A stretch of 61,439 nucleotides of DNA, filler included, from Vannella sp. (Eukaryota), in NCBI GenBank assembly GCA_023345925.1. It is 6 parts of 6 records of this genome, joined end to end, with 100 filler letters (N's around TTAATTAATTAA, not from the genome) between each part and the next. Parts side by side here need not be neighbours in the genome. Positions count along the whole stretch, not along the records: positions 45,190 to 53,508 come from JAJQQN010001115.1; 5 more parts are not named here. The stretch is one strand, 5' to 3'. Position numbers and translations under genes: made by a program. Under the pieces are notes generated by a model. That model ran no database searches. It saw nothing but the letters and a program-made list of their open reading frames with translations, and was not told the origin of the DNA. Positions 45,190 to 53,508 of the stretch are shown here, piece by piece. Every line of letters begins with the position of its first letter. The first letter of the stretch is position 1.

Positions 45190-47422
45190 CAAGGTCGTGA
45201 GTGATTATTATTGAACGAAATTCCAATCTCATTGAGAATGTCAATCAGAAAGTAAGTTGCCTTCGGATGAAACTGACTTTCTTCCGCCCGCCAGATTGGA
45301 CTAACTGAAATCCAAAGTGGGTAAGTCAATAATGCTCATCAATGCACTTTTCTTTGGGCAAAACTGACTTGGGTAGACGTTCCTTACATACGCCTGCTAT
45401 CAAGGGTACAGCGACATCATCCGTTTTTTGCTTTCCCTCCCCGAAGTGGATGTCCAACAGGAAGTAAGTTACATTCTATTGAGAGAAATGTGTCCCAACA
45501 GAGAATTTAGTGTGTACGTTAAAAGCTCTCCCTCAAGGCACCGTCTTTTGTGGGCTTGACTAAACCAAATAGTGTGTGAGTCTTCCTCTTTCGTAGAAAC
45601 AAAGGAGGAGTCTTCGAGCTGACCAAAATGGTGGCAAACAGATTGTGGGTAACTCTTTGAGCTGCCGTCATTAATTCACATTCACTTGGTCAGGAAGTTA
45701 GTATCTACTCTTTTCAATATCCTTCGAGTAAGAAGGGATCTAACATTTGACGTCTTTCAGGGTGTAAGTCTTAGGTTTATAGCGAATGATTCTTCCACAA
45801 GAGGAATCTAACTGAGTTGCTCCAGGAAGTAAGCTCAGATTCCAAGAAGATGAGAGAATGGCCTCTCATCCTATTTGATTGAAATTAGTTTGTATGTTAT
45901 CGCTATCTCCCTGATTCTTCATCCGCCTCACAAGTCAGCTAATTGGTTCACCAGTATGTAAGTGACAGTTCAAGAAAGTTAAGAAAATCGCTAACTTGAT
46001 TCTTTAGCTTGTCAGTAGCTCAATTCTGCGGGAGAGTACCGGACAAATTGGAACTAACCCACTCCTTGGACCTTATAGAAAGTGAGGAACATCAGATCCC
46101 GGGCTCTCGAACGAACTTTAAAAGATTAACGGGATTCAATTTAGCGCGTAAGCTATTCAATCTCCCCAAGAGAACTGACACTCACCTCATGACTAAGGGG
46201 GTAAGTGGAATCATATCTTAGCATTTGGGCTACTTAGCATATATCCAAAGGGAGTAAGTTGCCTTTAACGCTCTATTCATGGCCATTAGACTCAAGTTCG
46301 GACACTAATATTGGGATAGGCTGCGCTGGATCACGCCCTTTTGGGAGGAAACAGTGAAATCATTGAAATGGTCTTGTCTGCTGGTGGTACATGCAAAAAA
46401 GTGCGTTTCTAGTTTTCAAAAGGCAAGCCAGCTTACCAAAGTAGGATCGAAGGCAACTCGACCAATATCTGGCGAAGAAGGTGAAAGAAGGTGCGAATCG
46501 ACTGCCAGAGATCATTCAGAAAGCATTAGGAGTGCCAATGCGCATGGCAGTATCACTAGCATCTGTCAATCATCTGGAGAAGGAAGAAATGCGTCAATGC
46601 TTCGAAGAAGGCCGTTTGCCCTGCTCATTCTCGCTAAAGCTTCTGTGGGCCCCAGTTGCAGCCATTTTGGAACGGATTGAAGAGGATCTTTCTGGTAAGT
46701 TGCTAAGAATCGCTGAGGAACAAAGAAAGAGGCAAGAGGCCTTTAAGAAGAGAGAAAAGGCACAGAGGAAGATCCAGAAATTGGAAGACAGAATCGCCAC
46801 TTTCAAGGCAGCCGAGCAACACCACGAGAACCAAGAAACAACACTCAAGGAGGAGATAAGAGAGTGGCAAGCGTTGAATCTTCCCACTTTGAAGCAATTC
46901 GCTAGAACAGCCGCTGAGACCGAAGAGGAGTTGGTTACCCAACTTGAAGCCCAACTGGAAGTAGACCGAAGCCATTTGCTGGCGAACCACGAAAGAGGTG
47001 GTCCTAAACTCGGCTTACTGCTGAACTGTTTCGGTGCGGAGGAGGCAACCATCAACGTTCTTGCAGAATTCAACGGCGGAGACTTTGCCAAGCTTACAGG
47101 AACGCAACTGGACTCTTTGGTTTCTACCTTAGCCTCAAATCAGCGAACAGTGGTGCGGTACACCCATGAGAGGCTCAATAACGGGAAGTTGCCCTTTATT
47201 GAACACGATTGCATTCTATGTGACTGCGAGACTCCTTCTCAAATGGCGTCTTTCTTGAGGGAATGTGGACTTCCCGGTGTTACAGAAGAACTCATCCGCC
47301 AAACCGGCGCTTCTGGCCGTGGAGCTTTGCTATTTCTTTCAGCAAAAGATCTCAAGCTTGGCAACAGGAAAGCAATCCAAAAGGCTCTTACAAAGTCTCG
47401 TTCCAGACACCTCAAAAGGTAA
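45190..47422 (+). CDS. Ankyrin-repeat / coiled-coil / SAM-like protein built with single-codon micro-exon arrays; 5'-truncated
   Basis: 3-nt exons at 45194, 45249 and 45318. Ankyrin exon 45377-45463 (TFLTYACYQGYSDIIRFLLSLPEVDVQQE). Thirteen 3-nt exons 45511-46253. Ankyrin exon 46320-46400 (AALDHALLGGNSEIIEMVLSAGGTCKK). Terminal exon 46445-47422, in frame with the 46481 ORF. All introns GT-AG, phase 0. Confidence 0.85.
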
Positions 47423-47778
47423 CTCCATTCGCATCCAAAAGGAGAGGAATCAACACACTAGACTATCCATTAAACACATAAATTCGAGCTCATTGTTGGT
47501 AACTTGTTGGTGACTTGGACTATCAACAGTCGCAGGCTTGAAAGAGAGAGTTCACGGCCCCACTAAACCACGTCCCCTGGCCTACGTTGAACAGTGCTTC
47601 TAAATTCGAATGGCACCAATGAGAATGGGACCCAAACAAGGGGAAATACCCTCGCCACTCGTTACTTCTCTCCTAGTTTGCGTTGGTTTCTCTGATGACC
47701 TCCATCTCTTCAGGATAAGCTTTTAAATTGATTTCATTTTTTTACTTTCCACAAGGGAATTGGCCATTTTTGAACTGG

Positions 47779-50380
47779 ATGAGGTTGTTGGCTTGGAAGG
47801 CGTTGGGGGTTGTTGTGGGGCTTTTTGCTTTGGTTGGAGGTGAGTGAGGGAGGGGGGAGAGTAGTGGAAGGAGCCTAAGTTGTTTGAAAGCCCAGAGTAG
47901 TCCAGCAGAGATCAACCTGATTGGTTTGTTTGTTTTCAACGTCACCAAGAGCGTGGTTCGACTGGCTGTAGAGGACGTGAACAACGACCCAAGCATCCTC
48001 AATGGAGTGACTTTGTCTGTTTCCTACAACGACTCAAATCGGGACCCAGCGGTAGCTGCTGCTATCCTCCTGGAGAAGGTGAACATCCCGTACCCTCCCA
48101 AGATTGGCGTGATTGGAGAGCGGGTCTCACGTGTGTGCCTGAGTCTGAGCTACTTGGCCAGCTACTATCGTTTACCTCAGGTGGCCTACGGCTGCACCTC
48201 TCAGAACCTCTCCAACAGGAGCTCCACCTACTTTCTCCGCGGAACTCCCACGGACTTAGACCAAGCGCGTGCTTTGGCAGCTCTGATTGGAAGCTTTAAG
48301 TTCTCTGGGGATGCCAAAATCGAAGTTTCCACGATTTCTGCTTCAGATGAGTACGGAACGAGCTTCCAAACGGTTTGTATTCTCTCTTTATTCGGATTGT
48401 GGTGACTGACTCGAGTCGTAAAGGCGTTATCTTCAGTATCAGATGAGTTCAATTTTGCTATTGTACAATCAGAGCAGCTAGCTCCTACAACATCCACATT
48501 TACACAGAACTTTACATCAGCAATCACCCGATTGAAGAACAGCGGCGTTAAGATCTTTATTTCGATTTTCAATGCGGAAAAAGACAACTTTGCAATCTCA
48601 CAAGAGGTGTACCGACAGAATCTCTATGGAGGGGATTACCTGTGGTTCTTTGCTAGTGCAAGCCGGAAAAGCTTCTTAAATTCGACGGGCCTGGTGGACC
48701 CGATAGCCAACGCAACACTCTTTGGAAGCTTGGGAACGAGAGTACCAGCTAGACTTAAGGATACAAAGGATAGGGCGAGTGAGAGTAAGTAAGAATGCTA
48801 TCTCATCCGTTACTTACGCGAATCAAAGAGCTTCGTAGCCGATTGAGTGAAGCGGACCGCGAAGTTTTGCTGAACTTTGATGAGATTTCCTACGACATTG
48901 TCTGGGCGTATGCTTACGCTGCGCACACTCTTCTGTCTGAGGGAAAGTCTCTTGATGGTGATAACATGCTCAAGGCACTAAAGTCAGTCCGCTTTCAAGG
49001 CGTCAGTGGGAACTTTTCTTTCAATGAGCTGGGCAATCGTCCAAGCCGTTTTGATATTGTGAATAATAACGGTGGCGAGGACAAAAAAACTGAATTCTTG
49101 CAACCTCAAGTCATTGGCAGCTGGAATCAGGGAATTCTGAAAATTAATACGAGTGCGTTGGTCTGGCCATCAGGTACATCTGAAATTCCCAATTTGCGAT
49201 TGCCCGTCAAGTATTGGTCATGTCATGTCATGACCGCCGCAGCTACAAGGATCCTACTGGGTGAGTAAGCTCGAAGACTACATAAGTGGAGCTGATTATT
49301 ATGTTGTAGGAAGATCCATTTGGATCGCCCTGACGGGGGCGACGCCAACAATACAAAGAGGCTTATCGCTGCGATGGATTCATTGATTGTCAAAACATGA
49401 GTGATGAGGCAGGATGCAGCGCTTCGGTGATTCCAGCCATGATTGCGTTTGGTATTATTTCTGGGTTGATGGTGCTGAGTGCCTTTTCATTGTTAGTTAT
49501 ACTTTTATTCCTCATCTCTTTCATCAAGTCAGACAGGACTCAATCCAGCGGGCCATGCTTTCTCTTTGCAATCACTCTCGCCTCCCTACTTGGGATTGTG
49601 TCAACTTTCTCCTTTTATGGGAAGCCTACCAAGGCAAGCTGCGGGTTCCAACCATGGCTTTTGGGGTTGTCTATCATGCTCTTAATTTCGTGAGTTCTCC
49701 CGCTCCATCAGCCACCAATCAAACCTAATATTAATGATAGCTGCCTCTTCGTTCGCGCTGTCGCAAAGTTCATGGAACTCCGTACTCGGTCCCAGCTTCG
49801 GAAGTTGACCACATATTCCATTCCTGTTATGTGTTGTCGTATTGATGATACCTTTTATTGTTCGTACTACTCATGTGTTGAAACTGCTCTGACAGGGAAT
49901 GCGGAGCAGGTGATTCTTGTGGTCTGGTACATTGTGAGCACTCCGACTGCGGGTTTCAAGAAACTGAGAGCCGAGGAAAGACATTACATCTGCTTGTCCG
50001 AAGGGTTGGTTCCGGGTCTCACGTGGATCTTCTTTTTCCTTCTAGTGGGCTACGCCGGCTTTTTGCTGGGAGCAGCAGCGTTTTTCGTCTTCGTCACAAA
50101 AAGAGCAAAGACAAAGTACAAGGAAGAGCAAATCATCGCACTTTCAGTCTACAATTTGGCGTTCGTTGGAATGGTGGCAGTGCCTGTTCTCTTTGTTCTC
50201 AACTATCAAGAGAGTGTGTTAGCCTATTGGATCCTCCTCATGGTGATCATCAACTACGCCTTTGGCAGCACTTTGCTCTTCAACTTTGCTCCTCTTCTGA
50301 TAGGCACAGTCAAGGACAAGCTCTTCCCACCAAATGATGACAAAAAACCCGTTAAAACTCGTCCTGACGCGGAAGGATAA
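47779..50380 (+). CDS. Class C (GABA-B/Grl-like) GPCR with Venus flytrap domain; carries about 3 frameshifts (pseudogene or consensus errors)
   Basis: Signal peptide MRLLAWKALG.., RLAVEDVNNDPSILNG..IGVIGE..LPQVAYG, F.GVSGNFSFNELGNR. 7TM with CGFQPWLLGL and KYKEEQIIALSVYN. Confidence 0.8.
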
Positions 50381-50454
50381 AAGAGAAACACTTTAACTAG
50401 GATTGAAACCGAACAATCTACTGCATAGGTGGAAGGCAATACTTTGGATTGAAG

Positions 50455-51290
50455 TCACGCTTTCCTTCCCGCCACTGCTGCAAGAGTGGAATCACACTGT
50501 CTTCCTGTGACAGCAGAACCAGGAATGGAATGAGATCACGCAGCTCGGTGTCTCCTTCATCACCACTCCACCTTTGACAGAGGATGGAGTGTTTCGGTTG
50601 GAGCGAAAAGGAGCTGTCAGTATCATCGATAATGAGTGTACGACTGAGCTGGCGTCCAACTCGTGAGAGATCCTGGGAACAGGTTACTTACAGCTCAAGA
50701 GACGAAACTCACTTTGACATAAACCCCATCAATTAAGGTGCAATCGCTCCGATACAACCGGTGTTCGCACATAGAGTTGCCATCAACGCATTTCAGAACA
50801 GAGTTCGCGTACTAGAAAGGAAGAGAGTCCCCATTTCTCAAATCAAAACTCTGAATTGTTTCTGATTGGAGGATTACCTCCGCAACACTGGCAGTGAAGA
50901 TCACCACTTCAAAGTGCTTCCTCACTTCCTGTAGGAATAGATCGAGGAAGGGGCGCTTGCGAATCAACCATTCGGTGCATCCTCGACTTTTGGACTTGCC
51001 TTCGGGAAGATCTTCTTCCTGCTTCCACAATCAGGATCCAATGAAAGCAATGGCTAGAAGAATCACCTTAGGTGTGCAGTAAACGAGAGTCCTATCTAGA
51101 TCAAGCAACAAACACATCTTTCCTTCAGAATCAGGATTAGGTGCTGGAAGAAGCGCGTTCTTCGGTTCGACGTCGCTTTCAGTTCCTCTTCTTGAACACC
51201 GATTGAGTACCACGTGAAAATGCATCCGAGTAATGAATGGCTGACCTCACTTACAAGAGTGGCGCTTTCCTTTCCTAGAAACTGACTCAT
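50455..51290 (-). CDS. FCP1/SCP-family (NIF) CTD small phosphatase-like
   Basis: CLLLDLDRTLV, KRPFLDLFL..FEVVIFTAS, HRLYRSDC, VKDLSRVGRQLSRTLIIDD, DTELRDLIPFL. 5' end uncertain. Confidence 0.8.
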
Positions 51291-52161
51291 CGTTTTTTGA
51301 GAGCTCTTTGTTTCCCGTCGCTCTGATTATCTCCTTCTTCTTAATTAATGATCAAAATGAGCTGGTTGTTTGTCAGCATGTCGAACAAAAGAGTGCTGAT
51401 CACGCTGATAATGAGGTATCGATTCTGATAATTGACACCAAGTTTGTTCTCCAGAACTCATTTGATGGTTTTGGATGATTGATGTTCTTCAGATTGCTTG
51501 AGGCAATCTTTCTTTGAAATGCATCGGACCTTGTTGCAAGAGTTTCCAGAGTAATACCTCTCTTCACCTTCTCCCACGGGTTGACTAATGAGAATTGCAG
51601 TACTCATGGACTTTTAAGCTCCACCGCTGTCTGTTCAGTTCTATTGGATCAAACCTTGTGGAGTGTCAACGTGGGTGATTCTAATGCAAGTCTCTGTCGA
51701 CAAGAAAAGGCCATTGCTCTCAAAAAAGAGAACATCCCACAAGGTAAGTCAATTCGCCATCAAGTTCTCCGCGACTTCTAATCGACAATGTACCTCGCGA
51801 CTTATCGGGACTCCGCCCCCGGAGCTGTTCTACTAGCAGACTGCAACAAGATCAAGACAGGCGAGCATTGGAGACAACACTGTCGCTTGCCATCCTTTTA
51901 GTGCACAGCATACTTCAAACTCTCTAGAATCTGTGTCGATTGATGCGGAAAGCGAAGGAAAAGGCACCAAAACGAAAGGGAGAGAAGGACTTCCTAGAAA
52001 GTTGGGAGATTCATCTTTTCTAAGCTCTTCGCTGTTAGTAGCGGTTCTCTACTGAGATGGATGAGCCTAAAGCTTCTAATGCTTGTAAGGCTGAAGCAGG
52101 TGAATAGCTCTGACAACGTTCCATTAGACGTTTCTGACTTGCATGGACAGATCCCGCAAAG

Positions 52162-53366
52162 ATGGCCAAAGAGAGGATTTCACCATTCGTTGGTGAATTT
52201 TACCGATTTCCGGAGTTTGAGGCACTCTGGAAGCCTGTCCGCTTTGCATCGAGCAATTCTTCTTTCACTGGAAAGTATGGAACTGTAGAAGGATTGTCCT
52301 CTCCTCTTGCGAACGGAATCGATCTCCCTTTCTTTCAAGAGCTTCTGAGAGAATCAAATACTTCGAGTGGTGGGGAAGGGGCTGATTTTATCGAACATCG
52401 AGATTGCATGAGAATGAAGGATATCACAGACAAGTTCACTTTGGATCCTGAGTACCTCAAGAGCTTGGAAGATTGTCTTGCAAACCTTAAGGAAGTAATG
52501 AAGCTGGAAGAGATCCTCTCAAGATCTTTTTGTTTCAGCAGGGGGACTTCTTCCGCTCAAGTATCGACAGAACCTACACTGATGGACAAATGATGAGCCT
52601 GATGGTCGAGATACCAGTCAAAGATGACAGAAAGGGCGGGAAATTCGCGATTGAAGGCACCGAATTTGAGGCGCCAAAGGATACTTCTCTTGAGATTCTT
52701 TTCTTTAATGATACACTATATGACGTGACGGAGGTGGAGCGCGGTTACCGAGTTTCGTTGGTCTTCGATGTGATTCGGGAAGCGGACACTCCGTCTGTGT
52801 CTTGGAAGCAGGGAGGGCATGAGAGCTTTGCCGAAGGCCTGTGTGAGATTGCAAAAAGAGGCCACCAGCGAGTTGGCTTTCTCGCAAACAATCCTGGCAC
52901 TGAATTCATAGACGAAGAATCTCTCCATTTGGCGAACCTCTTGACTGGAATCGACCGAGTCATGTACGAATACTTGCTTGCTGTTTCTGTCCATATTCAG
53001 ATCGCTCCCGTCTTTTTCGAAGATGAAGGATCTGACATAAGCCTTACTGAGGTGATGACGCTCAATGGCAACGGTTCCTTCAGAGCGTATTATCGAAGAG
53101 ACGACGGTTTTGCGCCAATGACCCTCACAGGGAAAAAGTTGCACAAATACGAGACGATTAGACCGCATCTCTGTCCTGAACCCTCTGTGATCAAATCCCG
53201 GTACAAGTTGGGAGACGTCGTGTTTCTGGAAAGTGCAGCTCGCATGAGAAAGAGTGTTTGGGATGTAGATCATGGCCATTCGCGAGTACAATATGAAGGC
53301 TTGGCTGTTATTGCCACATTTCAGCAGAAAACCCCAAAGTCCGCGATGTCATCATTGATCCATTAA
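52162..53366 (+). CDS. 2OG-Fe(II) oxygenase-fold protein, frameshifted near 52515, metal ligands apparently lost
   Basis: LKIFLFQQGDFF, SLMVEIP..GGKF and DVTEVERGYRVSLVFDV match the DSBH pattern. Confidence 0.55.
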
Positions 53367-53508
53367 ACGAGTGCTAATCGTCAACTAAAGGGTAGAAGCT
53401 TCGTTCACTCGATTGGAAAACAACAATAAAACGGCATTCTTCCTAGTTCCATTTGAACTCATCAAGTGTATAAGGAAATAGCCCAAAAGCTAGTCCGGGC
53501 CTGACACC

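Follow-up and report, generated by a model that had tools for sequence, protein, structure and literature searches.

The gene at the start of one contig of the window encodes an ankyrin-repeat protein in which two loops would be spelled out by 3-nt units that are likely real one-codon exons. The window, by which we mean the whole analysed stretch of 61,439 nt, consists of six contigs joined by N-linkers, and the gene opens the contig at positions 45190-53508. The source of the window is a eukaryote, because the window genes carry short spliceosomal introns. Directly observed are the units, the signals of the introns between them, the reading frame, and a family of proteins with loops that vary in sequence and length beside conserved repeats; the pattern itself is confirmed as real and beyond chance. 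As an explanation we favour, with about even confidence, mostly full inclusion of the codons, which gene copies could gain, lose or exchange among each other without harm to the frame. The features of the gene are the following:

45190-45193, plus strand: contig start, four bases with AG at the end; they belong either to an intron beyond the contig start, as its acceptor, or to a longer exon, as part of its body.
45194-45196, plus strand: codon GTC (Val) before the donor GTGAGT, a one-codon exon or the 3' end of a longer exon.
45197-45248, plus strand: intron of 52 nt, GTGAGT..CAG, with a weak branch site CTCAT at -21.
45249-45251, plus strand: predicted one-codon exon AAA (Lys) of loop 1, with splice signals on both sides.
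45252-45317, plus strand: intron of 66 nt, GTAAGT..AAG, with the branch site CTAAC at -17 and a cryptic CTGAC..CAG acceptor inside (45292-45294).
45318-45320, plus strand: predicted one-codon exon TGG (Trp), the final loop 1 residue, based on splice signals and homolog loops.
45321-45376, plus strand: intron of 56 nt, GTAAGT..TAG, with the branch site CTGAC at -13.
45377-45463, plus strand: constant exon starting with TFLTYA, family ankyrin repeat 2, 87 nt, 29 codons, phase 0-0.
45511-46253, plus strand: downstream array, 13 predicted one-codon exons spelling loop 2, based on splice signals and reading frame; the units start at 45511, 45573, 45642, 45694, 45761, 45826, 45889, 45955, 46008, 46079, 46145, 46198 and 46251.
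46320-46400, plus strand: constant exon, ankyrin repeat 3, alignable with the part of P0006 and P0008 that matches Pfam Ank.
46401-46444, plus strand: predicted intron of 44 nt, GTGCGT..TAG, which restores phase 0.
46445-47422, plus strand: last exon, 325 aa, with a helical region, a long coiled coil and probable tandem SAM-like domains.

Altogether there are 15 bounded one-codon units and one open unit (GTC) in the gene, corresponding to 48 of about 1194 visible coding bases (4%). With 17 introns around 15 or 16 exons of 3 nt, the gene puts the spliceosome's handling of adjacent splice sites to an extreme test, and genes built like this would be overlooked by gene finders. Just downstream of it, a short element at 47544-47597 reaches a summed depth of hundreds-fold and has many unrelated flanking sequences in each of the three public DNA runs that contain this stretch (X1, X2 and X3, biofilm metagenomes of one study), and is a dispersed repeat. 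The neighbour gene at 47848-50380 (plus strand) encodes a family-3 G-protein-coupled receptor (Pfam ANF_receptor, E=1e-23; 7tm_3, E=3e-11).

The initial annotation had placed three one-codon exons, V-K-W, directly before TFLTYA. All three AG-NNN-GTRAGT motifs are indeed exactly placed, and the AAA and TGG units are bounded on both sides. The GTC codon, however, may be the end of a longer exon: it is not proven to be a one-codon exon, because only four bases are known upstream of it and the constant exon itself ends in a unit-like manner (CAG GAA/GT, 45461). The units precede the exon at 45377 in frame and would encode the loop in front of TFLTYA, the TPLH-equivalent. The constant exon matches Pfam Ank_2 with E=0.004, below the cut-off, and its region is 55% identical over 40 aa to the family protein P0147 (tblastn). 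The proposed loop-by-loop layout is supported; the 13-unit array of loop 2, like the loop 1 run, lies ahead of an ankyrin repeat exon.

All three introns of the run have 6/6 donors, and two of the three have a strict YTRAY branch site, at -13 and -17. The acceptor AAG at 45315-45317 lies 17 bases downstream of CTAAC, and AAG likewise ends two of four introns of the neighbouring receptor gene. Use of the CAG at 45292-45294, which has a branch motif of its own, had been named as a way to lose the TGG unit; the resulting 26-nt exon has a TGA when read in frame with the exon that follows, and in any other case it would cause a frameshift, so it was rejected and the TGG unit stands. Intron retention was rejected as well, since the unspliced region 45190-45376 contains stops in all three frames. 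The constant exon terminates with CAG GAA/GTAAGT, and this unit-like motif at 45461-45463 may be a former one-codon exon after loss of the upstream intron, or a seed for unit duplication.

Statistics of the splice signals set the gene apart from the rest of the window. GTRAGT donors carry AG at -5/-4 in 3/3 cases in 45190-45376 and in 9/9 cases in 45190-46330 (one of the nine being the 3' end of the long exon, at 45461). Elsewhere in the window this holds for 2/29 such donors on the plus strand and 3/24 on the minus strand, i.e. 5/53 in total. The corresponding Fisher p values are 0.002 for the run alone, 1e-7 for the gene and 0.014 for the two internal exons AAA and TGG alone. When AG-N(k)-GTRAG was searched in the gene with k from 1 to 12, k=3 gave 12 matches, k=12 one match and every other k none. 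The triple-unit pattern, which was designed from the run itself and is not an independent test, matches only this run in the window and had no match in 100 shuffles. The 14 introns flanking the downstream units are 47-68 nt long; 12 of them have a strict branch motif and two lack it, and in eight the donor matches at 5/6 positions. The mean donor match, out of six, is 6.0 in the run, 5.4 in the downstream array, 4.4 in a CDK gene and 5.5 in the receptor gene, the controls being introns of 44-60 nt chosen by eye (five from the CDK gene and four from the receptor gene). In both length and donor strength, the introns of the arrays resemble these ordinary introns of the window. Splicing of the CDK control gene yields an open 298-aa kinase. 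A donor at 46387 was discarded, the frame that results from it stopping after about 78 codons.

The mutual similarity of the array introns is 0.527, compared to 0.522 after shuffling, while the splice signals are kept in all of them. Since the introns are only as alike as shuffled ones, the array does not represent a satellite or a recent duplication. No pair of array introns shows recent duplication, so that the introns give no sign of current unit turnover. A tandem-repeat origin of the signal was rejected because the window introns are not repetitive. Repeats do imitate the signal elsewhere: a search for the triple-microexon pattern in metagenome contigs returned at least 109 loci, and among the 109 listed 81 are AGTA microsatellites and at least one (L069) is a CRISPR-like repeat array. 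Both kinds of sequence mimic AG-NNN-GTAAGT and are a trap for scans.

These mimics, together with the missing 5' end of the gene, speak for a chance arrangement, an assembly artefact or an unspliced dead gene. We nevertheless regard this explanation as very improbable, given the non-repetitive introns, the p value for the gene, and an open model that matches uninterrupted homologs. In addition, three other assemblies concur: contigs from X1-X3 cover the array, among them an X2 contig that extends over 45451-46649 and an X1 contig over 45190-46015. In 45190-46400, we counted 15 differing places and two 1-nt deletions, none of which falls in the exons and splice signals that occupy 30% of this region (p of about 0.02 for 11 events; at the depth of 2-6 some of the differences could be erroneous, and the window itself may derive from one of the runs). 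At this depth, no codon differences in the one-codon exons were found across the three assemblies.

With the last exon as query, 30 proteins were found at E<=0.01, one of them the window's own, and a profile search yielded 111 representatives. The sole named member is P0135 from the amoebozoan Vannella robusta, and a tree built from 34 selected rows places it far from the clade of the window. The family is likely amoebozoan, as the window's own lineage is likely to be. In the open-access literature we found no account of one-codon exon arrays in amoebae or of the protein family itself, which so far appears to be undescribed. No Sowah-named protein is among the homologs (judged by name only). 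A search for related loci via the family alignment gave 106 pattern matches, of which none was confirmed, and a weak search that covered 7988 candidates yielded no family protein of 726-2070 aa.

The model in which all codons are included reads through 397 aa without a stop and can be aligned over its full length with P0048 (25% identity, E=2e-39); BLAST scores do not tell it from models with fewer codons. In homologs the Pfam Ank domain passes the cut-off (P0048, E=6e-7; P0008, E=1e-5). Among the ten homologs with a visible ankyrin N-terminus, three repeats and two loops are the rule, being present in eight (five distinct N-termini); P0108 contains only two repeats and P0107 more than three. 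By comparison with these proteins, the run corresponds to the end of loop 1. Loop 1 measures 4-10 aa in six distinct homolog forms, and in two of the six (P0135 and P0108) it ends with Trp as in the window. Loop 2 occurs in seven homolog forms of 14, 13, 12, 10, 9, 6 and 5 aa. With all 13 codons included, loop 2 of the window has 14 aa, at the upper limit of what the family shows, and subsets of four or more codons would fit as well.

How strongly the loops vary is best seen in four close homologs from the source 'merc', which we take to be derived from marine eukaryote transcripts: their repeats are 84-88% identical, whereas the loops are 46% and 30% identical. In three homolog pairs both loops are identical while 20-49 other positions differ. 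One scaffold with two different loops was seen in 0/3 closely related pairs, a weak result because assembled transcripts collapse isoforms and may be chimeric. The loop-bearing homologs are distant from the window (about 25% identity, long branch), and the nearest relatives are ORFs that start no earlier than the last repeat. Directly before TPLD, P0006 and P0008/P0031 have a Gln, which is compatible with a CAG acceptor and hints at the same exon boundary. The N-terminus of P0008, considered as a similar loop, was set aside as most likely intron read-through. P0108 fuses loop 1 to repeat 3 and lacks repeat 2 and loop 2, with break points at the window exon starts; this arrangement could reflect exon skipping, a deletion or an assembly chimera. 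Ankyrin hairpins line the binding groove. In the AlphaFold model of P0147, loop 1 is predicted to form a beta-hairpin (E41-44, E47-49), and loop 2 is extended and less certain (pLDDT 67).

The homologs also bear on what lies upstream. The run begins four bases past the N-linker, so that its 5' side is cut by the contig start, as had been noted, and an X3 contig (160 nt, 95 placed) and an X1 contig (834 nt, 825 placed) extend beyond 45190. As predicted, the gene must reach further upstream; most likely, judging from the homologs, 1-7 further loop 1 residues and one degenerate repeat are missing. The prediction of more arrays upstream was not supported, since 8/10 homologs with a visible ankyrin N-terminus have just three repeats and two loops. 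Further arrays therefore seem unlikely, although the distant P0107 has more repeats.

According to the explanation that we favour, the short introns would be excised one by one by intron definition, so that the tiny exons would not have to be recognised as such. The majority of mRNAs would retain most or all codons, giving the 14-residue loop 2. A single unit could be lost by a splice-site mutation, or could be deleted, duplicated or swapped between gene copies, and such changes would not shift the frame, as every unit is a single codon in phase 0. For recombination, the introns would at the same time make each loop a target about twenty times as long. Over generations, gene copies would come to differ in their loops; this would be the main source of loop diversity, and a certain amount of exon skipping would add to it. 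As suggested by the architecture, the loops likely bind variable ligands, for instance molecules of prey or parasites, and signalling likely proceeds through oligomerisation of the coiled coil and SAM-like domains.

Alternatively, combinatorial splicing could be the main function, with codons being skipped often and independently and yielding up to 2^13 forms of loop 2 times at least 2^2 forms of loop 1. We regard this as possible but on the doubtful side. The suggested multiplication of diversity across loops would require exon skipping of this kind; inclusion of every codon already leads to a loop 2 of a length known from the family (14 aa). Any subset of units would stay in frame, every unit being 3 nt long and in phase 0, and the family tolerates loops of 5-14 aa. 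The 5/6 donors and the two introns without branch motif in the downstream array would fit frequent skipping, P0108 lacks exactly what skipping at the window exon boundaries predicts, and a precedent exists in the ankyrin-repeat genes of Tuber (PMC4986451, PMC13449251, as far as the accessible parts of these papers go). However, the array donors are at least as strong as those of the housekeeping introns, with 3/3 in the run at 6/6; the array is no longer than the longest family loop, which is unlike a library of alternatives; and the 0/3 homolog pairs mentioned above show no scaffold with two loops. A still more far-reaching proposal is that amoebae independently evolved DARPin-like ankyrin-coiled coil-SAM receptors with both loops encoded as one codon per exon and with splicing picking subsets. 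This seems unlikely to us; if true, one gene would give rise to thousands of binding surfaces, and residue-level somatic diversification would exist in a single-celled eukaryote.

The exons could also be real yet constitutive and non-adaptive, i.e. an old, fixed split of the loops similar to the Sowah microexons. In line with this, the introns are fully diverged and there are zero codon variants among the three assemblies. Moreover, Table S4 of the Drosophila sowah study, in the accessible part of the paper, contains annotated microexons of 3, 3, 6, 12 and 27 nt (PMC8042270). We consider such a split improbable, because the units are confined to two loops that are hypervariable in the family, while the repeats and the C-terminal part are in ordinary exons, and because 13 units in one loop stand against at most a few in sowah. 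The shared feature is the exon size of 3 nt, and the difference is that, as far as that table goes, sowah has four exons of 3-12 nt and one of 27 nt, whereas here 13 units fall in one loop and the family loops are hypervariable.

Closest to the gene in its working is the layout of the NACHT-ankyrin (nank) genes of Tuber melanosporum. According to the accessible parts of the reports, these contain many codon-sized exons which are alternatively spliced, in an expanded, receptor-like family (PMC4986451, PMC13449251). The gene described here shares the many codon-sized exons in an ankyrin-repeat gene, but it combines ankyrin repeats with a coiled coil and probable tandem SAM domains, and it is not a nank gene because a NACHT domain was not found: there was no match in the 325-aa last exon or in full-length homologs (e.g. 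P0048), which have no room for one. Furthermore, it is likely amoebozoan while Tuber is fungal, which makes an independent origin probable; the array here has the size of one loop, and its exons are predicted ones, in contrast to the alternative splicing reported for Tuber. One-codon arrays in ankyrin loops would thereby be extended from a truffle NLR family to another protein family, probably in another eukaryotic supergroup, and this points to convergence on residue-level receptor diversification. Since the arrays are tied to demonstrably hypervariable loops and a family member exists in the cultured amoeba Vannella robusta, the question is testable.

Two further systems are comparable in part, in both cases as described in the accessible parts of the papers. 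In the micro-exon genes (MEGs) of Schistosoma, microexons make up as much as 75% of the coding sequence of secreted proteins (PMC4015677). The tiny symmetric exons, which keep the frame on skipping, are common to both; here they account for 4% of the visible coding bases, are all exactly one codon long and lie within a folded repeat domain. In the brown algal ROCO and NB-ARC-TPR receptors, one exon corresponds to one whole repeat (PMC13449251). There, as proposed here, the exon architecture diversifies the repeat domain of candidate immune receptors, but in the gene described here one exon corresponds to one loop residue.

The C-terminal part was analysed with a structural model of the last exon (mean pLDDT 89.5), in which a long coiled coil (residues 68-173) is followed by two small helical domains. 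The helical domains resemble the SAM domain of SAMD1 (VIA Z 8.0, rmsd 1.9, 66 aligned), and the C-terminal part resembles the tandem SAM domains of liprin (VIA Z 7.6, rmsd 5.2, 155 aligned), which was also the best Foldseek match (E=0.17). Pfam SAM_3 matched 5/30 members (best E=0.006), and the Atlas top clusters are ANK+SAM at 0.93; an Atlas search with the last exon gave no usable match. The single lines are consistent and none is decisive alone; the C-terminal part probably contains tandem SAM domains.

The metagenome search mentioned above also returned at least 12 loci on 11 contigs with long arrays of apparent one-codon exons, comprising 7-32 units with varied codons (L012, L015, L045, L046, L060/L061, L073, L075, L080, L085, L095 and L099). 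None of them is related to the gene, and among the 109 loci listed tblastn with the window model and three homologs found no relatives at E<=0.01. Within an array their introns are 53-85% alike, and the intron style looks fungal. Such arrays may be widespread and recently duplicated. At L015 (6049-6510, minus strand) and L075 (2584-2967, minus strand) the array is preceded, on its own strand, by a P-loop GTPase-like exon, and these exons have weak Pfam matches to Arf, MMR_HSR1 and Roc (E from 4e-4 to 0.02). The flanking ORFs of L073 resemble those of L015 and L075, and L046 has similar introns. Judging from these sequences, L015, L075 and L073 look like members of a GTPase-linked gene family with one-codon arrays.
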